From: Okamejei kenojei
Lineage: Eukaryota
Assembly (NCBI GenBank): GCA_035221665.1
Contig: CM069134.1
Span: 88,474,001 to 88,538,000, forward strand
Direction of reading: 5' to 3'
Length of the DNA stretch: 64,000 nucleotides
Part shown: in pieces, positions 25,195 to 54,279 of the stretch
How the letters are laid out: each line of letters begins with the position of its first letter
Numbering within the stretch: the first letter of the stretch is position 1
Notes under the pieces: generated by a model
What the model was told of the DNA's origin: nothing
The model's input: the letters and a program-made list of their open reading frames with translations, nothing else
Databases searched by the model: none
Translations under genes and position numbers: made by a program

Positions 25195-27571
25195 CATGTG
25201 CGGACATGGCCTCGACGGACGAGAAACTGAAGCAAAGAAGTGGAAGCCAAATAACCGAACGGAAACTAAGCCGAAACGCCAAATAATCGAAAGCGTACAA
25301 AGTCGAAATGCCAACGAACCGAAAGGCTGGGATGCCTAAAAGCAAACTAACTGAAAGGGCGGGATGCCTAAAAACCAACTAATCGAAATGGTGGGATGCC
25401 TGAAAGCAAACTCACCGAAAGGCCGCTCTGCCAAAACTCACCGAAACGCTGCGTCACCTACAAGCCAACTAACTGAATGGCGACTCTGCTGAAAAATCAA
25501 ATAACGGACAGGAGGTCGCCGGGGGGCGGGACTTGTCAGCAATTGGTCCAGACCCCAACGTCCATCACTGGCCGATGGAGATGGGAGGGTGGGGGTCATT
25601 TTCCCACACAAGCCATAGGTGACTGGGCACTCTGAACCCAAGCACCAAGTTGTAAGTGGCCAAAGGAGCGCATCCCTCGGGACAGCCCCCACTCTCCCAC
25701 GGCCGCCCTCCGCCTCGTCTCCCCCGTGCGGCCGCACTGTGATGGGCTGTGTGTCGGTCGGATGATGGCGACGGTCGACTGATAACTGCCAGTAGTCTGA
25801 CGTCCAGATTAATCCAGCGGTCTGGATTAATGTGCCAGATCGGCTGCTGAACCTGGGTCGCCCCCGAAACACCTCGAAAAAAGTGGTGGCAGCGGCGGTG
25901 GTCACCTGCCACCTCTGACCAACTTGCAGCAGCAACACCAGTGGCAGATCAAGTCATAGACATAGACATAGACATAGAAAACAGGTGCAGGAGGAGGCCA
26001 TTCGGCCCTTCGAGCCAGCACCGCCATTCATTGTGATCATGGCTGATCGTTCACAATCAATAACCCGTGCCTGCCTTCTCCCCATATCTATGCCTCAATC
26101 ACAAGGATGTCCTTCCTCAAATTAGGAGACCAAAACTGTACACAATACTCCAGATGTGGTCTTACCAGAGCCTATACAACTGCAGAAGAACCTCTTTACT
26201 CCTGTACTGAAATCCTCTTGTTATGAAGGCCAATATTCCATGAGCTTTCTTCACTGCCTGCTGTACCTGCACGCCAACTTTCAGTGACTGGTGTACAAGG
26301 ACGCCCACGTCTCGCTGCGCCTCCCCTTACCTAACCTAACCCCATTGATATAATAATCTGCCCCCTTGTTTTTGCCGCCAAAGTGGAGAACTTCACATTT
26401 ATCTATATTATACTGCATCTGCCATGCATTTGCCCATTCACTCAACCTGTCCAGGTCACCTGCAACCTCCTAACATCCTCTTCACAGTTCACACTGCCAC
26501 CCAGCTTTGTGTCATCCGCAAACTTGCTAGTGTTGCTCCTAATTCCCTCTTCCAAATCATTATTGTATATATATGGTAAACAGTTGCGGCCCCAACACCG
26601 AGCCTTGCGGCACTCCACTCGCCACTGCCTGCCATTCTGAAAAGGACCCGTTCACTCCAACTCTTTGCTTCTTGTCTGCCAACCAATTTTTTATCCATGT
26701 CAACACCCTACCCCCAATACCATGTGCTCTAATTTTAGTCACCAGTCTCCCGTGCGGGACCTTATCAAAGGCTTTCTGAAAGTCGGGGAAGAGGTTGCAC
26801 AGTGGGTGAGTGCAGCGCTCTGCTGCGGCACAGCATCGCCCCCGCTATTCTCCCCTTCCCCAGGCAGCATCTCCACCACCACCCCCGCTATTCCCCCCCC
26901 CTCCCCCGGTGGCATCGGCCCCACTATCCCCCGCTCCACCCCTAGGCAGCATCGCCATCGCCGCCCACGCTATCGATCCACCACTTAATTAACCAGGTTC
27001 CTGAATGTAAGAACTATTTATACATATAAAATTTTTGTTTTTAAATCAATAACTCTTTTTTGAGTTTTAATACCGACCCCGTCCTGTGGGAAGGGCTTGC
27101 AGCAGCTGGTTTCATAGTGCCTTCATTGTTCGTAGGTGCTGAACTCTCACCTCTGCTCCGCCCGGAGCTGCCGACACACACTCGTCACAGTGCGGCCGCA
27201 CGGGGGAGACGAGGCTGAGGGTGGCCGTGGCCGTGTGAGAGTGGGGGCTGTCCCGAGGGATGCGCCCCTTCGGTCGCTTACAACTTATGCTTGGGTTCAG
27301 AGTGCCCAATCACCTATGGCTTGTGTGGGAAAATGACCCCCACCCTCTAGTCTCCATCGGCCAGTGATGTGATGGACGTAGGGGTCTGGACCAATGTGTG
27401 ACAAGTCCCGCCTTCCCCCTCCCGGCAAAGTCATGTCCGTTATTTGACTTTTCGGCAGAGCCACTATTCGGTGAGTTGGTTATTTGGCGTTTCGGCTTAG
27501 TTTCTGGTCGGTTATTTGGCTTCCACTTCTTTGCTGCGGCTTCTCGTCCTTCAACGCCATGTCCGGGTACC
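25195..27571. mobile_element. Non-autonomous Mutator/MULE-like DNA transposon with long TIRs
   Basis: Inverted arms ~25195-25760 and ~27170-27571. 9-bp direct repeat gggctgcag at 25186-25194 and 27572-27580. Removing the element restores a SINE/CR1-type tail. Subterminal aaccgaa repeats. Confidence 0.8.
25955..26783 (-). mobile_element. CR1/HER1-like LINE fragment nested in the MULE-like element
   Basis: (CATAGA)n tail; ORF 26560..26742 has [18 protein letters not shown]; internal deletion near 26090. Confidence 0.9.
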
Positions 27572-37754: not shown

Positions 37755-40053
37755 CAATATACAATAGACAATAGGTGCAGGAGTAGGCTATTCGGCCCTT
37801 CGAGCCAGCGCCACCATTCACTGTGATCTTAGCTGATCATCCACGATCAGTATCCTGTTCCTGCCTTCACCCCATATCCTGTGATTCCGCTATCTTCAAG
37901 AGCTCTATCTCACTCTCTCTTGAAAGCATTCAGAGAATTGGCCTCCACTGCCTTCTGAGGCAGAGAATTGCACAGATTCACAACTCTCTTGGTGAAAAGG
38001 TTTTTCCTCTTCTCCATTCTAAATGGCCTACTCCTTATTCTTAAACTGTGACCCCTGGTTCTGCACTCCCCCAACATCGAGAACATGTTTCCTGCCTCTA
38101 ACATGTCAAATCCCTTAATAATCTTATATGTTTCAATAAGATCCCCTCTCATCATGGGAATTAACCGAATTAGCACTCCCTGAATAGCAAGAATGTCCTT
38201 CCTCAAATTTGGAGGCCAAAACTGCACACAATACTCCAAGTTTGGTCTCACCAGGGCCTTGTACAATTGCAGAAGGACCTCTTTGCTCCTATACTCAACT
38301 CCTCTTGTTATAAAGGCCAACATGCCATTAGCTTTCTTCACTGCCGGCTGTACCTACATGCTTACTTTCAGTGACACCCAGATCTCGTTGTACTTCCCCT
38401 TTTCCTAACTTGACACAATTCAGATAATAATCTGCCTTCCTGTTTTTCCCACCATAGTGGATAACCTCACATTTATCGACATTGAACTGCGTCTTCCATG
38501 CATCTGCCCACTCACCCAACCTGTCCAAGTCACCCAGCATCCTTATAGCATCCTCCTCACAGTTCATGCTGCCACCCAGCTTTGTGTCATCTGCAAATTT
38601 GCTAATGTTACTATTAATCCCTTCATCTAAATCATTAATGTATATTGTAAATAGCTGCAGTCCCAGCACCGAGCCTTGCGGTACCCCACTAGTCACTGCC
38701 TGCCATTGTGAAAGGGACCCGTTAATCCCTACTCTTAGTTTCCTGTCTGCCAACCAATTTTCTATCCATGTCAGTACCCTACCCCCTATACCATGTATTC
38801 TAATTTTGCCCACTAATCTCTTATGTGGGACCTTATCAATGGCTTTCTGAAAGTCCACGTACACATCATCCACTGGCTCTCCCTTGTCCATTTTCCTAGT
38901 TACAATCTCAGAAAATTCCAGAAGATTAGTCAAGCATGATTTCCCCTTCATAAATCCATGCGGACTTGGACCGATCCTGTTACTGCTATCCAAATGTATT
39001 GCTATTTCATCTTTTATAATTGACTCCAGTANNNNNNNNNNNNNNNNNNNNNNNNNNNNNNNNNNNNNNNNNNNNNNNNNNNNNNNNNNNNNNNNNNNNN
39101 NNNNNNNNNNNNNNNNNNNNNNNNNNNNNNNNNNNNNNNNNNNNNNNNNNNNNNNNNNNNNNNNNNNNNNNNNNNNNNNNNNNNNNNNNNNNNNNNNNNN
39201 NNNNNNNNNNNNNNNNNNNNNNNNNNNNNNNNNNNNNNNNNNNNNNNNNNNNNNNNNNNNNNNNNNNNNNNNNNNNNNNNNNNNNNNNNNNNNNNNNNNN
39301 NNNNNNNNNNNNNNNNNNNNNNNNNNNNNNNNNNNNNNNNNNNNNNNNNNNNNNNNNNNNNNNNNNNNNNNNNNNNNNNNNNNNNNNNNNNNNNNNNNNN
39401 NNNNNNNNNNNNNNNNNNNNNNNNNNNNNNNNNNNNNNNNNNNNNNNNNNNNNNNNNNNNNNNNNNNNNNNNNNNNNNNNNNNNNNNNNNNNNNNNNNNN
39501 NNNACCTAAAGTTGTAGCACAACTTGTTCTATTTGATCTTGTTTGATTGTGCACACCAGGTTCATTGCATTCGTCGAAACAGGGTGGACCACGTGAAGGT
39601 TGCAATCTCCTACCCCACTCCCCACCACCAATGTCAGGCTAACGTCTATAATATCCTGTTTTCTCTCTCCCTCCTTTCTTAAAAAGTGGGATAACATTAG
39701 CTACCCTCCAATCCACAGGAACTGATCCTGAATCTATAGAACATTGGAAAATGATCACTAATGCATTCACAATTTCTAGAGCCACTTCCTTATGTACCCT
39801 GGGATGCAGACCATCGGGCCCTGGGGATTTATCAGCCTTCAGTTCCATCAGTCTACCCAACACCATTTCCTGCCTAATCTGAATTTCCTTCTGTTCCTAG
39901 GTCCTCTGGCCATTAGTGCATCTGGGAGATTGTTTGTGTCTTCCTCAGTTAAGACAGATCCAAAGTACCTGTTCAACTTGTCTGCCATTTCCTCGTTCCT
40001 CATAACAAATTCACCTGGTTCTGTCCTCAAGGGACTCACATTTGTCTTAACTA
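37755..40053 (-). mobile_element. CR1/HER1-like LINE, RT-containing, spans the assembly gap
   Basis: TSD atgtcataga at 37745-37754 and 40054-40063. Motifs [55 protein letters not shown]. Confidence 0.93.
39032..39503. other. Assembly gap (472 N)
   Basis: Run of N. Confidence 1.
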
Positions 40054-40865: not shown

Positions 40866-41173
40866 CTGTTGTTGATGAACAGTTTGACATATGCAGTTCT
40901 GTTATCTATTTGGTCCAGAGAAGAGAGGAGAGTTTGTCAAATTGCATCTGTTGTTAACCTGAAATGTGAACTCATTGTACATCACTATCATATCTCCTCT
41001 CCCGGTTAGGCTTTCAGTAAATACAGCCTAACCTGTTTCCAGTATTTTTAAATGTTATTACTCCCTCTCAAGGTGCCTTGCATCTGGGTATATTGTCCCT
41101 GTTGTTCTCCACACCTGCTTGACATTGTTGTGAAGTTATTCAACATAGAAACCTCTGACTGTCCCTCTGAGTG

Positions 41174-41935
41174 TGTAAACTGCTCGTTTCTAAGCTTCCC
41201 CCCAGTCTAGTTTCAGTAAAAACACTGAATCAACACTTGGAACAACTAAATTTTATTTTAACAAAAGTGCGTTACAGTTCAACTACTGTACCTATCCCAA
41301 CGCGGGTTCGATCCTCGTATCTGCCTGTTCAAGCCCTCTAGGCCTCGCTCAGACAGGGACATTCCAGAAGTTAACGCAGTCCCAAGCTCTCTCCCAGAAG
41401 ATCAACTCCGTACCTCGTGGTAGCGGACTTTTATGTGTCCCGGGACCTCAAGGGGCCGAACCACATGGGTGTGGTCTCTTAATAATCCAGATATCGATTA
41501 ACCCCATACATAACAGACATATCTCTAACCCAATAATACAGCAGCTTATACATTGTATTCAAACACGACTTTGTAAGGAAGCCAACTAAGAAACGTTTAC
41601 CCTGATCTGCCAGAAACCCAGACAAGGCTCAATACCTCAACCAATCAACACTCGGCAAAATCAAACTCTGCAACATTATGTACAATTATTTACAAGGTGT
41701 ATATCTGGTTTGCAGCCATTCAATCCATTCTATGCATTTTGCACCTAATTGACAGGGTTTGAAAATGTTATTCTTTGCTTGCAAATTGTATCTAAGCTCT
41801 AGACACACTGGCGCCTCTTAGCAGCTTGCCCCAGCTCTGGAGAGAGCAATTCCAAATTGACCATATCTCCCAGCAGCCCTGAAGCTTTTAACCCATTTTG
41901 AAGTTCTAGCCTCTCCAATTTAGCCAGGATTAACA
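41174..41935 (-). repeat. 3' LTR of the ERV (762 bp)
   Basis: tgtaaactgctcgtttctaag...tagccaggattaaca aligns along its length with 52093-52517 plus 53925-54244. Minus-strand AATAAA at ~41252. Confidence 0.92.
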
Positions 41936-41950
41936 TTCATTCCTTTTTAT
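41936..41950 (-). promoter_or_regulatory. Polypurine tract (PPT) candidate
   Basis: Minus strand reads ATAAAAAGGAATGAA immediately before the TG of the 3' LTR. Confidence 0.6.
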
Positions 41951-43857
41951 CAAATATGATAACACATCATTTATGATAACCAAAATGGCTCAATAATCAG
42001 CTAACCAGATTTAGATAAGTGTGCTGTACATTTCCCATCTATCAGCAACACAAGATGATGATGTCTCTTCCCAGAATCTTGTCAAGCGTCCCGAGTTTTC
42101 ATGGGCATAACTTCACAAGTTCCGTCTGAGGAGTCTTAACCTCCCTAGTTTTCGTGGGCGCGAATTCCCTCCATCCGTGTTGCTGCCCATTCTTCCATCA
42201 CCTTCCACAGTCGAACCTAAAACCTAGAAATTAAACTTGGGACAAGGCAAGTTACCATCATGCACCCATGCTTTCCCACACATTCACAATACTATTCCTA
42301 TTTGAACCTATTATATTACTAGATCCCTATTCCTATTCTGTTCCCTAATATTCTCTTTATTGTTCTAGGATCGACACTAATTAGCCTTCTTCATACTCAC
42401 ACAATGTTATAATATGTATATCTGATGACGAGTAATCAAATACATTTCAGCAGGGTTCAGTCCAGATTTTCCTACAGGCGTGACTCTAATTTAAATCAAA
42501 CCATGATAAATGTTCCAATTTAACTAAATTCCCTCAGCCTTCAATTTACTATTTCAAACTTCGATGCCCATCTCATCCTTCTCATTCCACAGCGTTTTAG
42601 CCTATAATACAACTCCATTACAATTCCTGTGGAATTCCCAGCTGTTCAAATTTAAACAATCAATTTCCTTTGCTATCAATTTTATTCCAAATCCAATCAG
42701 GAATGCCAAATCCAGGGACAATTTCTTTCCACCTTGATAATAGAAACTGCTTTACCATCAAGGGTTAAACAATTCAAATCCATTGGGCAAATATGCATCA
42801 GCTCTGCTATTCTTAATACCTATTCAATTTTCTCCCTACAGTTAACCAAATCTTTCCACCAGTACCTCTTCTTATTTATGCATGCACTCCTCACTATGGT
42901 AATTTGTTACTATGTTGATTCTCTACTATGTTGGTTCTTTACTCTATTAGCTCCTTACTATGTTAGCTCTTTACTATGTTGGCTTTGTTCTCTGTCTAGT
43001 GGTTCTCGCTTTTATTCTATTGGCTTTGTTCTTTGTCAAGGGGTTCTCGCTGGTACTAGTTCTTCTTATCTCTATGTAACTCTTCCAATTGGTTAGTATT
43101 GATCTTCCGAGGGAACTTATACATTTTCAGTCTACCTCATAATTTTATACTACCACCTTACATTTCCAGGGTGTGTCTTAATTCCTGATATCCGCTTGGG
43201 TGTGTCCCTTCCTTGATAGTAACCAAATAGTCCAGTCATATCTTCGACAATCCTCCTATGGGTGAGAAGAAAGAAGAATGCCAAATTAACAGTCATTTCT
43301 CTAACAATTATAAAACTGTATCCCTTAAACCCTTTTTTAAATTAATATACATAACTAAATTTGGCACAAAGTGAGTATTTTGCTTGTTATTCAGATCCAA
43401 TTCTAAAGAGGAGCTATCCCAATAGTCGTTACAAGTTGTCAGTGTTATTTATTTTGAAGATGATTAAAGTGTCCTTTATTCTCCTTCCTTTTCTTTCTCC
43501 AATAGCCAGGTGATATTAAAGTTGGGCACTAGGGTAGGTCCTCTTCTTCTTCCTTTCTGATGGTGGTTTCAGTTACTAGGGAGTGGGGATACTGAGGAGG
43601 ATATTTCTCTGCCTGCTGGCATCCCAAAAGGGGCAGGAAAGTAGCAGTTCCTCCCACTGGTCACCTGTTTCTGGGGAGCTACATTACCTTTTTCTGTCTT
43701 GTTACCGTTCATAAGGGGTCTGTGCATTATTTTACCTCACTCCCCAGATAGTCTCTCGTTGATATACTGTCCTGCAGGCACATACTCAGTAACATATTAA
43801 TTTAATATCCTCTTTCCCCACTCCTATTCCTCCTATACAGTAAGTTTGTTTCTTCTC

Positions 43858-44041
43858 TCCTCTGCCTCAGAGGGTGGTGGAGGCAGATTCTCTGGATGCT
43901 TTCAAGAGAGAGGTAGATAGGGCTCTTAAAAATAGCAGTCAGGGGATATGGGGAGAAGGCAGGAATAGGGTACCGATTGGGAATGATCAGCCATGATCAC
44001 ATTGAATGGCTGTGCTGGCTCGAAGGGTTGAATGGCCTACT
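43858..44041 (+). mobile_element. CR1/HER1 3' fragment inside the ERV
   Basis: tctgcctcagagggtggtggaggcagattctctgg...gatcagccatgatcacattgaatggc...aatggcctact. Confidence 0.85.
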
Positions 44042-44045
44042 ACCA

Positions 44046-45629
44046 GGGTATGGGTTGCTCCTCGACCAGAGGAGCAACCCATACCCGTCCACTGACACCC
44101 TCCTCCGCCCAGCGGAGTTGGTCCTTACCCTCAATAACTTCTCTTTTGACTCCTCCCATTTCCTCCAAACACAAGGCGTAGCTATGGGCACACGCATGGG
44201 CCCCAGCTACACTTGCCCCTTTGTCGGGTATGTCGAACAATCCTTGTTCTCGGCGTACCAGGGCCCCATCCCCGACCTCTACCTCCGTTACATCGACGAC
44301 TGCTTTGGTGTCACCTCCTGCACCCACACACAACTGACTGACTTCATCCATTTCACCTCCATCCGGCACTCAAATACACTTGGACCATTTCCGACATTTC
44401 CCTACCATTCCTTGACCTCACCATCTCTATTGCAGTTGATACACTCCTGACCGACATCCACTACAAACCAACTGACTCCCACAGCTACCTGGACTGCTCT
44501 TCCTCCCACCCTGCTTCCTGTAAGGACTCCATCCCCTATTCCCAATTCCTCCGTCTACGCCGCATCTGCTCCCAGGATGAGGTGTTCCACACCAGGTCAT
44601 CACAAATGTCCTCATTCTTCAGAGAACGGGGATTCCCCTGCCCCACTATAGATGAGGCTCACACCAGGGCCTCCTCCATGCCCCACAACACTGCCCTCTC
44701 TCCCCATTCCCCACTCGCAACAGAGGGTCTCACCTTTCACCCCACCAGGGTTTCACCACCTCCAACGTGACCCCTCCACTCGCCACATCTTCCCATCTCC
44801 CTCCCATCTGCCCTCCACAAAGATCGCTCCCTCCGCAACTCCCTTGTCAATTCTTCCCTTCCCTCCCGCTCTACCCCTTCCCCGGGCACTTTCCCTTGCA
44901 ACCGCAAGAAATGCTAAACTTGTCCCTTCACCTCCCCCCTCCATTCCTTTCAGGGACCCAAGCAGTCCTTCCAGGTCTGACAGAGGTTCACCTGCACCTC
45001 CTGCAACCTCATCTACTGCATCCGCTGCTCCAGATGCCAGATGATCTATATTGGTGAGACCAAGCGGAGGCTTGGCGATCGTTTCGCCGAACACCTCCGC
45101 TCGGTCCGCATTAACCAACCCGACCATCCCGGTGGCTCAGCACTTCAACTCCCCCTCCCATTCCGTATCCAACCTCTCGGTCCTGGGCCTCCTCCACGCC
45201 CAGAGTGAGCAACACCGCAAGTTGAAGGAACAGTACCTCATATTCCGCTTGGGGAGTCTGCATCCTCTGGGCTTGAACATTGAATTTTCTCAATTCTGTT
45301 AACCCTTGCTGTCTCCTTCCCTTCCCACATCTCCCTCAGCCCTCAGGCCCTGGCATTCCTTCTCTCTCTATCTCTCTCCCCCACTCTAGTCGCATTAGCT
45401 TCTCATTTTCACAATACAAACTAGCTTACAATGGCTTGTTCCCTTGATCATCAATACTTTTTTGCATATCTTTCATTCATTGTTCTTTATCTCTCCACAT
45501 CACCATCTATATCTCTCGTTTCCCTGATCCCTGACCAGTCTGAAGAAGGGTCTCGACCGGAACGTCGCCTATCTCTTCGCTCCTTAGATGCTGCTGCACC
45601 CGCTGAGTTCCTCCAGTCTTTTGTGTACC
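44046..45629 (+). mobile_element. Penelope-like element (Neptune-type), 5'-truncated, frameshifted
   Basis: RT motifs NFSF..HFLQTQGVAMGTRMGPSY and LRYIDDCF; KPTDSHSYLD; Cys linker PCNRKKC*TC; GIY-YIG domain NLIYCIRCSRCQMIYIGETKRRLGDRFAEH; tail with ctgaaga...gaacgtc. Confidence 0.92.
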
Positions 45630-46145
45630 CTCACCAGACTGATTCCTAGGATGTCAGGACTTTCATATGAGAAAAGACTGGATAGACTCGGCTTGTACTC
45701 ACTAGAATTTAGAAGATTGAGGGGGGATGTTATAGAAACTTACAAAATTCTTAAGCGGTTGGACAGGCTAGATGCAGGAAGATTGTTCCCGATGTTGGGG
45801 AGGTCCAAAACAAGGGGTCACAGTTTAAGGATAAGGGGGAATTCCTTTAGGACCGAGATGAGGAAAACATTTTTCACAGAGAGTGGTGAGTCTCTGGAAT
45901 TCTCTGCCACAGAAAGTAGTTGAGGCCAGTTCATTGGCTATATTTAAGAGGGAGTTAGATGTGGCCTTTGTGTCTAAAGGAATCAGGGGGTATGGAGAGA
46001 AGGCAGGTACAGGATACTGAGTTGAATGATCAGCCATGATCATATTGAATGGCGGTGCAGGTTCGAAGGTCCGAATGGCCTACTCCTGCACATATTTTCT
46101 ATGTTTCCATGTTTCTATTGTCTATTGTCTATTGCCTATTGTCTA
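45630..46145 (+). mobile_element. CR1/HER1 3' fragment inside the ERV
   Basis: ORF 45588..45923 (RLGLYSLEFRRLRGDVIETYK...TRGHSL) with a (tttctatg)/(ctattgt)n tail. Confidence 0.92.
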
Positions 46146-47817
46146 TAGTGCCATTTGCAATCCGTAGTTGCCATCCCTTCTCATGCTAGCTACTATGTTC
46201 CAGTTTTTATTCTTTATTGCCCCTTGGTTTTTCTTCAATCCTGCTATGTTCTGCCTTCTCGCTGGACACTCCTTGCTCCAGTGACCTGATTGGGTGCAGT
46301 TGAAACATGTTCCTTGATTTACAATCTTCTTTGCTCCAAGGGGTTTTCTGGGGTAGTCGTAAGATAGTTTATAATTTTCTTCCATACGATTTTCAGTTTT
46401 TACTACAATAATACATCCAATTCGTTCATTCTGGTAAATTACTTGAGGGGGTTCTAGAGTATGGGTCATGTCTCCACGCCCACAATTCCAGGGCGGGTTG
46501 GTGAGTCAGGACTGAGAAAATGGGTTAGCTTGAGTAAACGGTGTGTGACTTGTCAGTTCCTGACATTCGGGTCATCTCTCTCTCTGGTTTCTTGGGTCCC
46601 AGTAGTCTCAAGAATTAAAAGACCTCCCATAATTCCTTGGATTTCGGATGTGTCTATATTCTCTAGGATTTCTAAATTCTTCATAATCCTGGAAATCCCT
46701 TCTTTGACCCCTCTCTTTCATTCTTTCCTTTGTTGGACAGGCCCAACTCCAATGTCCCATTGATTATGTAACATTGCTGGTCTTATGTAGAATACCCTGG
46801 GTTCCAGTGGAATGGGCTTGAAATTGGGAGTGTAGTGGTGATAGCAATCAGAATAATCTGGGACCCTAATTTCTCCCAATCCATAATTTCCTGGTACTCT
46901 GAGAATCCATGGTTTAGAGTTAGATTTTGGTCAATCTTCCTTCTCTGTGCATTCACTTTCTCTCCTAGTTACAGAATCATTTTCCTGGTTCCTATTTTCC
47001 TTCCAATAATATCTCACAGCTCTGGCTATCTGACTGGCTCGGTTTTCAGACCAGTCACTATTATCATTTTTAATTAACTCCATTACTTTAGTGGGGAGAC
47101 AATTCAATAGGATGGCACAATATTGACAGGAACTTGCTCCATTCTGATAATCTAAATCACCTGATTGGTCCATATATAATTTTGAAAAACTGTCTAGAAA
47201 TTTGTCTTCTCCTTCACCCTTCTCTGGTTTTATTTACAGAACTCGAGTGAAATCGCCTGGTTTCTGAAATGTTTTTGCAAGGGCCGGTAAAACAGCCTCT
47301 TCTCTTGCACTGTCATAAATTACTGCGTTTGCCAATATTTCATAAGTCGGGTGTCCTAGGGCTACTAGAAATTTGGTATTCTTAGCTGAAGTAATTACTT
47401 GTTGTATGGTCTCCAACAAATCCCGGGAATCTGCATGATATACACACATTGTGATTTGCAAATCTATATTACTAAAAGTCTGTACTTGACCACTTCCTGT
47501 TGTTCTGTATATTGATTTTAGAAAAAACGCTGCCACTTATGGTTGTGATTTATGGCCATCTTACTAAGGACAAGAGGATTTTTCCCATCGATGAAAAATA
47601 AAAGAGTTATCAGTGTTTAGAAAATGTTGAGATTCTCTCTCCTGAAGGCCACAAACCTTCCGGAGGGACTATAAAACCTGGAAGTGTTGAGTGCCTCCGT
47701 CAGTCAAGATGGGGGAGTGAGAGTGTCACGTCTCTCAGACTGAGCTGTGAACAACACTGCACACATGTCTACTAAACTGTGAGTGTGGTTTTACTGATCT
47801 TGAGTGCCCTTAATGTG

Positions 47818-48125
47818 GTTTGAAAATGAAAATGTGGTTGGTTTGAAATAAAGCACTGCAAATGGTGGTTGGTTTGAAATAAAGCACAGAAAATGATTGT
47901 TGGGGTGGTTGGTTTAAAACAAAGCACTACAAATGGTTGTTGGTGGTGGTTGGTTTGAAATCACAAAACTGAAAATGGTTGTTGGTTTGAAATAAAGCAC
48001 TGCAAATGGGTGGTGGTTGGTTTGATATAAAGCACTGCAAATGGGTGGTGGTTGGTTTGAAATAAAGCACTGGAAATGGGTGGTGGTTGGTTTGATATAA
48101 GGCACTGCAAATGGGTGGTGGTGGT
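47818..48125. repeat. ~30-35-bp minisatellite inside the Helitron
   Basis: Repeats of aaatgggtggtggttggtttgaaataaagcactgc. Confidence 0.9.
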
Positions 48126-48352
48126 GCAATGAAAAATTAAGATGTTGAGAATCTCTCTCCTGTCAATCATGCCATGAAGGCCACTTCTGGTGGGATGTGG
48201 AGGGATTATAAAACCTGGAAGTGTAGGTGTGGCTGAGTCTCTACAAGATGGGGGAGGGAGGGGTCACGACTGTCTGAGCTGTGAATGAACTGAACTGTGA
48301 GTGTGGTGTTTATGTGGTGTTTTGTGTGGTTTTTTGGTGGTTCTATGGTGAT

Positions 48353-48612
48353 TTCACCCTGCTTGAAATGGTATGAAACTGCATTTGAATGTGGTGGCCT
48401 TGCACCCTGCATGAAATGGTATGAAACTGCATTTGAATTTGGTGGTCTTACACCATGCTTGCAATGGTATGAAACTGCACTTGAATTTGGTGGCCTTGCA
48501 CCCTGCTTGAAGTAGAACGAAACTGCACTGGAATTTGGTGGCCTTGTACCCTGCTTGAGTTAGTACGAAACTGCACTTGAATTCGGTAGCCTTGCACCCT
48601 GCTTGAAATGGA
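48353..48612. repeat. ~48-bp minisatellite inside the Helitron
   Basis: About 5 copies of tggtatgaaactgcatttgaatttggtggccttgcaccctgcttgaaa. Confidence 0.9.
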
Positions 48613-51600
48613 ATTTCAAGGAATAGCCATGAGTCAACTGCCAGCCCACCAGCCGTGAGTGAGCTGCCAGCACATCAGGCTTGAGTGACTGAGCTACCAC
48701 CTCAAGAATCCATTTGGCCCATAATGTCCATACTAGCCCTCTGGAAACCAGTCCCTTCAGCCCACAACACCCATACTAGTGCTCCAGAAAGCCCCCCCCC
48801 CCCCCTCCCACTGGCCACCAATATTGGAATTGGTGGAGAGGTGGAATATTATGTTGGTGGACCAGCCCTCCCGTGTGAACATGGGGCCCAACGGGTCCAA
48901 CTTAGTCTAGTACTCTATAAAGGCAGCAGGTGACTTCTTCCTATCAGGGATTCTGATTAGTACTGCATTATTTCATGGGGCTTTCACGGCATATGGGCGT
49001 CAGTGGCACGGGGATTATTCATACTCACTGTGCTGGTCGAATCTGCTGTACCTATTTCTTCCCTTACTGGTAATTGCCTATGGGATACCTGTTCAATTTG
49101 TAAGCTTTCGGTTACGTTAAAGTCTATTTCGGTATCTAAAATCGGTGTTTCATCCTCAGATAAATCTTTCGGTTCGCTAGGGGTTTCCCGATACTGCCCA
49201 AATAAATCATTCCTTTCTACTCGAGTGATCTGTCTAGGTTGTGGCTCACAGAAATACCATGGTGGTTGCACTATATCTAACATACCTTTATTTTCTTTAA
49301 ACATGGAGCTAACCTTTTCGTTCTACTCCGGGTGCCATAAGCCACTGGACGATCTATTAATGATGGCGTAGATAGGATTGAAGGATCTCGTACTTCAGTA
49401 TCTGCTGTTGGTAGAACCTGTTCAGATGTAGAATCTGCAGGAGTTGTTATAGATTCTGCAGACCTAAAATATTTATTACGGACACAAGTCATCCACAGCA
49501 CTATGAAGCCTGGGAAACGCAAGAGAAACAAACATGGTGGGAGCTGCGAACTTCCACTGGCGTTAACATTTGTCCACTCTTCTAAATACTCATCTTCTTC
49601 CCCCTCGAAGTCAGCACTAACCATCGGACTCCTAATCTTTAATTTTACAGGGACTACTTTTCTTGCAGGAGATCCACCTTGCTCTGAGTGTTTCCCTTCA
49701 TCTCCACTCCTGTCCTTACCACTACCTGGAGGTCGATCTACTTTACCTTCTTTTAGTTCAAACCAAGTTTAGCGATCACTTTTTCCCAACTGGCCATTCT
49801 CTTAACCTCCTAATTCGCCTTCCGTTCCTCGAAATATTTTCTCCATAACCCTATTAATTCTTTTGCACCCTCATTATTACTATGCTGCCAAATGATCCGT
49901 TCTATGTATTGTATCCCTCTTACTGTTCTAATTCCCCCCAGCGGACATAACTTATTTCCTAATTTCTTATTTAATGCTCCTGATAAAGTTCTTAATTCCT
50001 CTGCCTTGTGAGGAAACTCATTACACATTAGTTGCAATGGGCTATTTTCCTCTTCTGTTACATCTCTATCTACATTATTCCCCATGCTTCCAAACACCTG
50101 AAACATAATTTTTAAATCCTTCCTTTTTATCCCTAAATTTACCAAGTTCGCTCCTCGACAATGGTTAATGGTTCAAAGCGATCGCAGCCTTGCTCCTCGT
50201 TACTCTTTCGTTCCATCAATCCTATTCTCTTATTCAAATTCTTCTTTTATCTCCCACAATTCCACAGCCTTTCAACTTTATAACTTTCTCAATCCACAGT
50301 CACTCAAGAATCATACTCCAGGGAACAATCAAGCACATCCAAACATAATCAAACACGCTCCCACACTCATTTAATCCTCAATCAAAACATCCAAAAGTGA
50401 TCTTCAGACATGGAAGTATCACCGTCCACAAGCAGGATAACACACTACCTATCACTATCAGGCACAGCCACACTCCTAAATAAACCACAAACATTTGTTT
50501 ATTATAAATCATGCACTAAGAAATCTTCATCGTGGCACAATCAATCAGCGGGATGACTCCTCCCCCGATGCAGCCATCGAAGGAGTACAACCCCTGATCG
50601 AACCACCCCGATTCTTACAAAATGCTCTTACAAAACAATTTTAAACAAATACGAATATCTAACTTAAACACACTCTTACTTTGTTTCTAATCCGTAAACC
50701 ATCACACAAGCAACAACAGAAATGACGGTCCGCATACTTAACACGATCTAAATCTTAACTTAATTCCCAATAAACTAATAAGTTTATTTACATACATAGA
50801 ATATTTACAAAAACCGGATCTGATGACAATACGAAAAGCTGGATTTTTACAATTTACAAAATGATTTAAAGCACTAGCGCACAATTCACGAACACTCTAA
50901 CTCGACGCCGGGACACGCTGTAATCACGCAGTGAACCTCTCACTCTGATACCGAAGATTTTCCCCTTCGTAGTTCACTCTTTGCTGAGAGGTACTACTCC
51001 TTAAATGACTACTTTTCATCCCAAATGTTACTATCCCTCTGCTAAGCCTGGACTTCTATAGGAGGACCTCTATCCTTTCTCTCTAAGTTCGACTGAATTA
51101 GGGGTACCCTTCGCTATTTGGAGTGCTTTTCATCAAGTAAACAAGTTCCCATCTCTCAGGCACTCTTCGCTATCAGGTATTAATCACCAATCGACCAGAG
51201 GGTTACTATTCAGTGTTGATCAACCGCTATTCGGAATCGATCACGGACATGCACCAACTCTAAGGTTCTATATAGAGGAATTCGAATTCCACCTTACTGG
51301 CAGAACTTCAATATGAAATTCAGTGTTTCAAAATTTGGCTTTGCAAATATAGACTCGAACTCGAACTCCTAATTTTAATGAGTATCTCTTCTACTACACG
51401 GGCTCTCGAATCGGCTAAAATTGCCCAGTTGAATTCTTGGACGGACTGGAGTATTCTGGCCAATCTATACTCTGTCCATCCAAACCCAGTACCTTCTCGA
51501 GGCTCTTCGTCCATTACTTCAGGGAGAGTCTCGGGTACCTACACACAGGCACTCCTCGAGGATCCAGCACCTAGCCGCTTCGCGCTGTGAGTTATCAATG

Positions 51601-52073
51601 CCGATTTTCAGAGCGCACCTTTTCAATTCGCACTCCCGGCAAAGATCCGATGGAAGGCGAGACCTGTATTTTAATACCCCACCAATTTGGGTACCAAGTC
51701 TAACCCTGGGCCACGCCTCGCCCGATGAAGTGTGTTTGGCTCTCGTTAAAGCAGCTGCAGTCTGCCAACTACGACCAATGTTTTGGGCCTCTAACCCAGG
51801 AAAGGGACTCTAACCCAACCCCACTAGGGCCTCTAACCCCACCCTGGTATTATGGGCCCCTAACCCAAAGGCTAATCATTCCCCCGTGCTTGCTAGACTC
51901 TGTTCTAAAGATCTCGATTAGACCCTTTCCCAAGCCCGCGAATGATCGATCCGCTCCAATTGACGAAGTGATGAAAATCAATGCGAAAACTGCACCATGG
52001 GCCCGATTTCTGCACTCGAGATCGAAACAGGTCAACACCCTTGATCGTAAACTTGTGTTTGGGGGTCATTTGA

Positions 52074-52091
52074 GATCCCGGATGACCCCTA
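52074..52091 (-). promoter_or_regulatory. Primer binding site, tRNA-Pro-like
   Basis: Minus strand just inside the 5' LTR reads TAGGGGTCATCCGGGAT, compared with the canonical tRNA-Pro PBS TGGGGGCTCGTCCGGGAT. Confidence 0.75.
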
Positions 52092-52092
52092 A

Positions 52093-54244
52093 TGTAAATT
52101 GCTTGTTTCTAAGCTTTCCCCCAGTCTAGTTTCAGTAAAAACATTAAATCAAGCACTTGAAACAACTAAATTTTATTTTAACAAAAGCGCATTACAGTTC
52201 AACTCCTGTACCTATCCCACCGCGGGTTCGATCCTCGTATCTGCCTGTTCAAGCCCTCGAGGCCTCGCTCAGACAGACACTCCAGAAGTCCACGCAGTCC
52301 CAAGCACTCTCCCAGAAGATCGACTATATGTCCCGGGACCTCGAGGGGCCGAACCACATGGGGGTGGAAACTTAATAACCCAATTACAGGTATTGATTAA
52401 CCCCATACATAACAGGCATTTCCCTAACCCAATAATACAACAGCTCAATACATTGTATTCAAACTGGACTTCGTAAGGAATCCAACTTAGAAACATTTAC
52501 CCTGATCTGCCAGAAACATAGAAACATAGAAACATAGAAACATAGAAAATTAGGTGCAGGAGTAGGCAGGCCATTCAGCCCTGCACCGCCATTCAATATG
52601 ATCATGGCTGATCATCCAACTCAGTATCCCGTACCTGCCTTCTCTCCATACCCTCTGATCCCCTTAGCCACAAGGGCCACATCCAACTCACTCTTAAATA
52701 TAGCCAATGAACTGGCCTCAACTAACCTCTGTGGCAGAGAGTTCCAGAGACTCACCACTCTCTGTGTGAAAAAAGTCTTTCTCATCTCGGTCTTAAAGGA
52801 TTTCCCCCTTATCCTTAAGCTGTGACCCCTTGTCCTGGACTTCCCCAACATCGGGAACAATCTTCCTGCATCTAGCCTGTCCAACCCCTTATGAATTTTG
52901 TAAGTTTCTATAAGATCCCCTCTCAATCTCCTAAATTCCAGAGAGTATAAACCGAGTCTATCCAGTCTTTTTCATAAGACAGTCCTGACATCCCAGAATC
53001 AGTCTGGTGAACCTTCTCTGCACTCCCTCTATGGCAATAATGTCCTTCCTCAGATTTGGTGACCAAAACTGTACGCAATACTCCAGGTGTGGTCTCACCA
53101 AGACCCTGTACAACTGAAGTAGAACCTCCCTGCTCCTGTACTCAAATCCTTTTGCTATGAAAGCTAACATACCATTCGCTTTTTTCACTGCCTGCTGCAC
53201 CTGCATGCCTACTTTCAATGACTGGTGTACCATGACACCCAGGTCTCGCTGCATCTCCCCTTTTCCTAATCGGCCACCATTTAAAATAATAGTCTGCTTT
53301 CCTGTTTTTGCCACCTGGTGCCCACTGCCCACCCAGCCTATCCAAGTCACCTTGCAGTCTCCTAGCATCCTCCTCACAGCGAACACTGCCCCCCAGCTTA
53401 GTGTCATCCGCAAACTTGGAGATATTGCCTTCAATTCCCTCATCCAGATCATTAATATATATTGTAAATAGCTGGGGTCCCAGCACTGAGCCCTGCGGTA
53501 CCCCACTAGTTACTGCCTGCCATTGTGAAAATACCCGCTACTCTTTGCCAGCCAGTTCTCTATCCACATCAATACTGAACCCCTAATACCGTATGCTTTA
53601 AGTTTGTATACTAATCTCTTATGTGGGACCTTGTCGAAAGCCTTCTGGAAGTCCAGATATACCACATCCACTGGTTCTCCCTTATCCACGCTACTAGTTA
53701 CATCCTCGAAAAATTCCACAAGATTCGTCAGACATGATTTACCTTTTGTAAATCCATGCTGACTTTGTCCAATGATTTCACCACTTTCCAAATGTGCTGC
53801 TATCCCATCCTTAATAACTGACTCTAGCAGTTTCCCCACTACCGATGTTAGACTAACTGGTCTGTAATTCCCCGTTTTCTCTCTCCTTCCCTTCTTAAAA
53901 AGAGGGGTTACATTTGCCAGAAACCCAGACAAGGCTCAATACCTCATCCAATCAACACTCGGCAAAGTCAAATTCTGCAACATTATTTATAATTATTTAC
54001 AAGGTCTAGGTCTGGTTTGCAGCCATCCAATCCATTCTATGCATTTTGCATCTAATTTACAGGGTTTGCAGATGTTCTTATTCTTTGCTTGCAAATTGTA
54101 TCTAAGCTATCGATGCATTGGCAACTATTCGCAGCTTGTCCCAGCTCTGCAGAGAGCAATTCCAAATTGACCAAATCTCCCAGCAGCCCTGAAGCTTTTA
54201 CCCCATTTTGAAGTCCTAGCCTCTCCAATTTAGCCAGGATTACA
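52093..54244 (-). repeat. 5' LTR of the ERV, interrupted by a CR1 insertion
   Basis: tgtaaattgcttgtttctaag...tagccaggattaca, homologous to 41174-41935 on both sides of the CR1. Confidence 0.92.
52518..53914 (-). mobile_element. CR1/HER1-like LINE inserted in the 5' LTR
   Basis: TSD tgccagaaac at 52508-52517 and 53915-53924. (ATAGAAAC)n tail. RT motifs [28 protein letters not shown]. Confidence 0.95.
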
Positions 54245-54279
54245 AGTGTACATGATCATTAATGACCCATAATTCTACA

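Follow-up and report, generated by a model that had tools for sequence, protein, structure and literature searches.

A gag-retaining class I retroviral family without reverse transcriptase in the skate Okamejei kenojei, and its likely env-less helper

How does a retroviral family that encodes no polymerase become abundant in a genome? The question is raised by an element that lies on the minus strand, between positions 54244 and 41174, of a 64,000-nucleotide stretch of Okamejei kenojei DNA (assembly GCA_035221665.1, contig CM069134.1, positions 88,474,001 to 88,538,000; this whole stretch is called the window). A first-pass annotation described the element as an endogenous retrovirus (ERV) with gag and neither pol nor env, perhaps from a non-autonomous gag-only family mobilised in trans by an undescribed retrovirus. 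The analysis reported here indicates that the window copy is probably an old and broken member of an abundant class I family that kept gag and lost reverse transcriptase (RT) and env. The enzymes that copied the family in germ cells likely came from a helper, a related gag-pro-pol lineage that lacks env, and a 2-kb block would have been exchanged repeatedly between the two.

The window family is defined as the copies that share the long terminal repeat (LTR), leader, gag and short pol slot of this element. First-look searches gave 4304 candidates with the LTR and 2663 with the half of it that is specific to the family; the post-gag region yielded 1466 and 3' gag 683. These are not copy numbers. 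Besides the window copy, 38 internal copies were compared, and all share the layout LTR-leader-gag-short slot-LTR. Of the 28 other copies that are visible across the pol slot, none yielded a class I RT. The span from the capsid (CA) region to the 3' untranslated region (3'UTR) does not exceed 2.8 kb in 19 of the 28 family copies, the remainder being longer mostly through inserts; it is 4.4-4.7 kb in four of seven loci of the helper type described below. Class I pol probes detected a single integrase (IN) relic in the family copies, together with weak RT matches (22-35%) in four inserts that, from their motifs, I take to be of DIRS/LINE type. Among 29 loci picked on the LTR alone, 20 were solo LTRs, eight of them with exact 4-bp flanking repeats and most others with one mismatch; none of the nine with internal sequence showed a class I RT. 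Loss of RT is a property of the whole family, not of one copy. The two LTRs of 12 family copies differ by a Kimura two-parameter distance (K2P) of 0.067-0.116.

The 1.9 kb between gag and the 3' LTR, in which no RT, integrase or env motif had been recognised, indeed contains neither an RT core nor env in the window copy, but it does hold relics of RNase H (RH) and integrase. Although Pfam alone recognised nothing there, when 17 copies were compared at the DNA level with 14 further ERV loci, the segment aligned, in order, with the end of RNase H, two integrase blocks and the 3'UTR of pol-bearing relatives (449 matches vs 0 with reversed sequence; a second map had 2 control matches). An RT-start motif near 43750 was seen by eye only, and a protease-flap motif noticed by eye at ~43840 found no homology support and was dropped. 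With selection measured as the ratio of differences at 0-fold and 4-fold sites, the integrase relic decays neutrally: the values were 0.92 and 1.38 (not significant), against 0.10 for the intact integrase of relatives used as a control. The family is non-autonomous and retains gag, as proposed, but it is pol-eroded rather than gag-only.

Relatives with an MLV-like RT that could have supplied the missing enzymes are present in the same genome. A protease probe gave 370 candidates, 20 of which were sampled as helper-type loci; RT is found in 18 and integrase in 16, and env probes detected nothing between integrase and LTR in any of the 20. The proteins nearest to the helper integrase come from shark and skate (53-77% identity). 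Seven of these loci share with the family the 3' half of the LTR (83-88%) and/or the leader (79-88%), a similarity about the same as that among the family copies themselves. In the same loci the matrix (MA) and capsid are 65-74% identical to those of the family. The search for pol-bearing elements with the same LTR, suggested in the first-pass annotation, was successful for the proximal U3, R and U5 but not for the distal U3, which does not align. The shared block extends from the proximal U3 through the primer-binding site (PBS) into the leader, as far as about nt 1626; its breakpoints recur near LTR positions 345-380 and leader position 1626. Its left end lies ~130 nt upstream of a putative TATA-like motif, so that the block would connect the two RNA ends, 3' and 5', as happens in reverse transcription.

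The block and the capsid have different histories. A tree of the block with 21 rows has helper loci at three or more depths among the family copies (L119 groups with L064, and L126 and L129 with L016 and L018, both with support 100/99), and monophyly of the family is rejected (log-likelihood difference 416, approximately unbiased test p-AU 5.7e-5). The family CA forms a single clade (SH-aLRT 100), and the helper RT ladder matches the helper block ladder. At least three exchanges of the block are required. Since the two lineages interleave on the block, repeated swaps are indicated, likely in co-packaged RNA. In a tree of R-U5 (midpoint root) the family is nested among helper LTRs; these sequences suggest that the first donation came from the helper. 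Helper LTR pairs (K2P 0.079 and 0.094, and 0.143 for a partial one; a value for L129 that included overlapping sequence is left aside) point to an age similar to that of the family, and in the block-sharing loci L115 and L116 the 3'UTR lies ~220 nt from the LTR, which leaves no space for env. A helper acting in trans is likely, as first proposed, but there is no need to postulate an unknown infectious virus: gag-pro-pol relatives that lack env and match the family in age share the 5' cis block.

A pathway can be proposed in which family RNA would be transcribed from the shared promoter and co-packaged with helper RNA. Helper RT, primed by tRNA-Pro, would switch templates and thereby carry the block across, and with the block transferred, family and helper would stay matched in tRNA priming, integrase ends and packaging signal; helper integrase would then insert the family DNA through the near-identical LTR ends. 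The family would make its own Gag and a minor read-through Gag-knuckle fusion that replaces Gag-Pol, and its Gag would likely co-assemble with helper Gag-Pol. According to the accessible part of one source, retroviral recombination requires co-packaging (PMC5086612).

By linkage through its pol-bearing relatives, the sequences place the family among class I ERVs, in agreement with the first-pass annotation. The RT of one relative, L038, scored 129 bits with MMLV, 92 with foamy virus and 65 with Ty3, and the integrase C-terminus of relatives carries a GPY motif (MLVIN_C) that is lost in the family. Duplication of 4 bp at the target site is typical of class I retroviruses, and the family has it together with TG...CA ends, a tRNA PBS and a PPT. 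Columns resembling the major homology region (MHR), a motif already noted at the first reading of gag, are kept across a 20-row CA alignment, and the identity of the family CA with the Gags of class I elements that carry pol is 32-53%. The Gag_p30 profile gave no match, nor did Foldseek with the CA model (pLDDT 56) or protein-database searches with Gag. The ATG-to-TGA distance of gag differs from copy to copy. The capsid is under purifying selection on the stem of the family, where the 0-fold/4-fold ratio of fixed differences is 0.32 (p 2e-8).

Some leads suggest that the family may be epsilon-like. Relatives L034 and L031 have an in-frame stop followed by protease, and the homologous TGA is present in the family. 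The protease-RT spacer of relatives carries two HxT motifs, is homologous to the L031 spacer (E 7e-16) and may be a 2H domain, with an atlas score of 0.96 for PF08302, recognition below threshold and a fold pLDDT of 31. In the accessible parts of the respective sources, UGA is placed at the gag-protease junction of the epsilon-related SSSV and ZFERV (PMC13517186), a 2H domain is reported in WDSV and a fish retrovirus (PMC9503650), and epsilon-like fish retroviruses are given two nucleocapsid (NC) zinc fingers (PMC1224870). To that extent WDSV, SSSV and ZFERV resemble the relatives in the stop between NC and protease, in the GPY motif of integrase and perhaps in a 2H domain in Pol. Unlike these viruses, the window family has neither env nor accessory open reading frames (ORFs), and helpers and family alike have one NC knuckle before the stop, not two.

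What lies behind that stop differs from a protease. The gag-terminal TGA, kept in 33/36 window-family copies, is followed by a cassette of modal length 315 nt to its own stop (10/31 copies), whose start resembles the second half of the helper protease, the catalytic half missing, and which contains a second CCHC knuckle. The first-pass annotation had credited gag with one CCHC knuckle; the intact motif at 46307 is real, but it lies after the TGA, and the true NC knuckle, intact in many sister copies, is frameshifted in the window copy (~46780-46740). Knuckle 2 as an internal duplicate of knuckle 1 was rejected, no DNA similarity being found in 6/6 copies. A sister lineage (18 loci) has the same cassette, yet still contains RT, RH and IN; no protease N-half was found in any of its loci, and the TGA is kept in 17 of the 20 loci read. 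Between this lineage and the window family, knuckle 2 is identical at 10-11 of 14 residues, compared with 18-31% identity in its surroundings. I infer from these comparisons that the second knuckle was translated through read-through of the stop and selected. The sister lineage also displays a purifying signal in RT, RH and IN (0.16, 0.33 and 0.06). This signal is ascribed to recombination with a second helper lineage, and the interpretation of the sister lineage as a protease-free autonomous retrovirus was therefore rejected: the same RT subtype also occurs with protease (of 20 loci with this subtype, four have the protease N-half, two more the C-half, and five the cassette).

A bolder interpretation, which I regard as tentative and on balance doubtful, is that such elements form a class of satellite retroviruses, in which Pol behind a read-through stop was replaced by a second knuckle to give a specialised RNA-capturing Gag, and which tracked their helpers over millions of years by serial swaps of the promoter-primer-packaging block, with two satellite and two helper lineages. 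If true, the joint evolution of a vertebrate retroviral satellite and its helper would be preserved here in fossil form.

Several points weigh against the partnership proposed here. The locus samples are the top matches of longer candidate lists, and the block trees were built on projections onto the window copy, in which one row may mix both LTRs of a locus. The family CA is only 41-51% identical to the helper CA, which makes mixed capsids doubtful. Within the family, selection on gag is weak, the ratio varying with the threshold between 0.72 (p 0.07) and 0.51 (p 0.01), and no single gag region shows significant selection; the cassette as a whole shows none either (0.67, 0.78). A premature stop near gag codon 76 (window ~49858) occurs in 11/22 copies scattered over the tree. 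It may be a mutational hotspot or a recombination mosaic; as a mark of one subfamily it was rejected (p-AU 2.6e-4). Finally, Arc_C gave weak matches in 7/20 CA rows (best E 0.006), and the Retrotrans_gag feature score was 0.90. The weak selection within the family, the codon-76 stop and the distance from the helper CA would all suit a variant of the same partnership in which the family Gag was a passenger during most of the amplification and the RNA was carried in all-helper particles; by riding in helper-built particles the family RNA would have acquired the helper leader. I hold this variant to be possible but rather unlikely, because the CA stem is clearly purifying while pol decayed, the ratio falls to 0.51 for variants shared by at least five copies, and gag length and the TGA are maintained.

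The other rivals concern the route of the block or the nature of the element. Ectopic recombination or gene conversion between chromosomal proviruses could have moved the block, in which case its sharing would prove neither co-packaging nor a helper role; thousands of related LTRs offer substrates, and a converted master would hand fixed breakpoints to its progeny. It is established, however, that progeny take their U3 from the 3' LTR and their leader from the 5' end, so that both ends would need to be hit each time; with at least three exchanges needed, and both LTRs of L118, L119 and L129 carrying the helper-type distal U3, this route is improbable. More improbable still is a real helper in the form of an infectious retrovirus with env, the env-less relatives being mere fellow travellers: the genome does contain env-bearing class I families, but they have no DNA similarity to the family LTR or leader, and the negative env probes and the lack of room for env in L115 and L116 also speak against it. 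A one-off deletion in the window copy, in conflict with the layout common to all copies, can practically be discounted. So can a Ty3/Gypsy element, despite the Arc_C and Retrotrans_gag signals that would favour it, since the Gags to which the family CA is homologous occur together with MLV-like RT (129 vs 65 bits for Ty3), MLVIN_C and TLV_coat; Gypsy origin is thus very unlikely.

Parts of this picture have precedents. In the mouse ETn/MusD, VL30/MLV and MaLR/ERV-L pairs, a defective ERV is mobilised by a related element that shares its terminal cis signals; ETn and VL30 are non-coding, unlike the gag-retaining window family. ERVs with gag alone are already known from zebrafish (Bik-1/2), and the exchange of ends with helpers from plants. 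As far as the accessible text of PMC12067270 goes, BHIKHARI Bik-1 and Bik-2 are likewise LTR-gag-LTR elements with many solo LTRs, lack pol and env and need partner enzymes, but are lokiretrovirus relatives, young, with intact Gag, no CCHC knuckle and no identified partner. The window family, by contrast, is class I and old, still shows remnants of pol, carries a knuckle behind the stop, and has a likely helper in the same genome; its CCHC knuckles and the MLV-like RT of its relatives separate it from Loki/foamy-like elements. In soybean, LTR swapping between autonomous and non-autonomous elements was reportedly described by Du et al. in 2010. Compared by title only, that pair is alike in keeping a partnership by exchange of terminal regulatory sequence, but it consists of plant retrotransposons, whereas the window family is a vertebrate retrovirus whose block comprises half an LTR and 1.6 kb of leader, the distal U3 remaining lineage-specific. 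For grass non-autonomous pararetroviruses, the accessible part of PMC5491270 describes concerted evolution of the regulatory non-coding sequence of defective element and partner by region-specific recombination; these differ in having neither LTR nor integrase.

Most gag-only ERVs, zebrafish Bik-1 among them, have no identified partner; here both a likely partner and a synchronised block can be read from the genome. The block would map the cis sequences that matter for helper compatibility, from the proximal U3 to about leader nt 1626, the distal U3 and the 3'UTR not being among them. Screens based on Pol, such as the pol-plus-env rule in the accessible part of PMC4422223, overlook abundant ERV families of cartilaginous fish. 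A limited literature search, with most subscription papers and supplements outside it, found no description of the window family, and no post-stop zinc knuckle or repeated or serial block swap in a vertebrate ERV.

The anatomy of the window copy is given in Table 1. The paired LTRs, the CACT duplication, the polypurine tract (PPT), the 2.0-kb leader and the Helitron within gag, all noted at first reading, were found again. The PBS in sister loci L005, L012 and L014 is the exact complement of the 3' end of the genome's tRNA-Pro genes, which upholds the tRNA-Pro assignment. The corresponding tRNA 3'-end pattern occurs at 24 genomic sites, and of four inspected three were called tRNA-Pro and one tRNA-Cys. 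The last, at L113:1501-1573, has a 3' end of Pro type; ARAGORN calls this gene tRNA-Cys (anticodon aca). The two LTRs align with 84-91% identity, and the dating proposed earlier gave a K2P of 0.092 (731 sites), that of an old insertion. A contig of a second organism bridges the 3' junction (13 differences in ~480 letters), and the insertion is therefore older than the split from that organism. With rates quoted in the accessible part of PMC4422223, uncalibrated for this lineage, its age would be ~20 to 200 My. The window copy is old and broken, and a host function is not suggested. An uninterrupted sister copy measures 7.9 kb, relative to which the window copy has three nested inserts. The LINE fragment in the 5' LTR is presumably of CR1 type.

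Table 1. Coordinates of the element and its parts in the window
Feature	Position	Strand	Remark
Target-site duplication CACT, 5' copy	54245..54248	-	
5' LTR	52093..54244	-	~750 nt LTR proper plus nested LINE fragment
Nested LINE 3' fragment with RT, inside 5' LTR	52518..53919	-	RVT_1 E 2e-16
Shared block: proximal U3, R, U5, PBS, leader to ~nt 1626	50468..52480	-	common to helper-type elements
tRNA-Pro PBS	52075..52091	-	decayed in window copy
Leader	50086..52074	-	2.0 kb; predicted packaging signal (putative function)
gag, ATG at 50085 to TGA at 46508	46506..50085	-	broken by stops, frameshifts and Helitron
Helitron-type insertion in gag	47463..48910	+	non-coding; inserted between A and T, ends TC...CTAG, no duplication
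NC zinc knuckle 1	46737..46780	-	frameshifted in window copy
Post-stop cassette, ~104 codons	46193..46505	-	protease C-half relic plus second CCHC knuckle
Second CCHC knuckle	46266..46307	-	intact; ~200 nt past gag TGA, in protease slot
Nested stack: LINE 3' ends and Penelope-type piece with GIY-YIG	43861..46145		GIY-YIG E 0.002, below Pfam cut-off
RNase H C-terminal relic	43117..43170	-	
16-bp tandem repeat in eroded pol	42907..42982		
Integrase core relics, two blocks	42438..42793	-	neutral evolution
3'UTR	41949..42196	-	homologous to 3'UTR of env-less relatives
PPT	41936..41948	-	
3' LTR	41174..41935	-	762 nt
TATA-like motif and AATAAA in 3' LTR	near 41435 and near 41256	-	putative function
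Target-site duplication CACT, 3' copy	41170..41173	-	junction spanned by contig of second organism

The Helitron site in gag is uninterrupted in 31/39 loci. L017 carries another, longer Helitron (75-79% alike) at the identical gag nucleotide, and in L063 a Helitron sits at most a few bases away; a second Helitron in L017 with a similar 3' flank hints at a target preference. In L004 (G000:C22 ~22276100-22278200) the 16-bp repeat that lies in the eroded pol has grown to ~2 kb.

Among the other class I loci, L036, L037 and L041 form one clade in which CA lies 330-350 nt from RNase H and integrase and env are kept; they gave no protease or RT match and represent a further defective lineage. The near-identical L031, L032 and L033, which belong to a separate class I family, encode an immunoglobulin V-set domain (E 1e-8) in an ORF between pol and a TLV_coat env (L031:6660-8273). 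Elsewhere in the window, outside the element, there is a run of 472 N at 39032-39503, and long inverted arms (80-95% complementary) with 32-bp subrepeats at 25201-27565 probably mark a DNA transposon.

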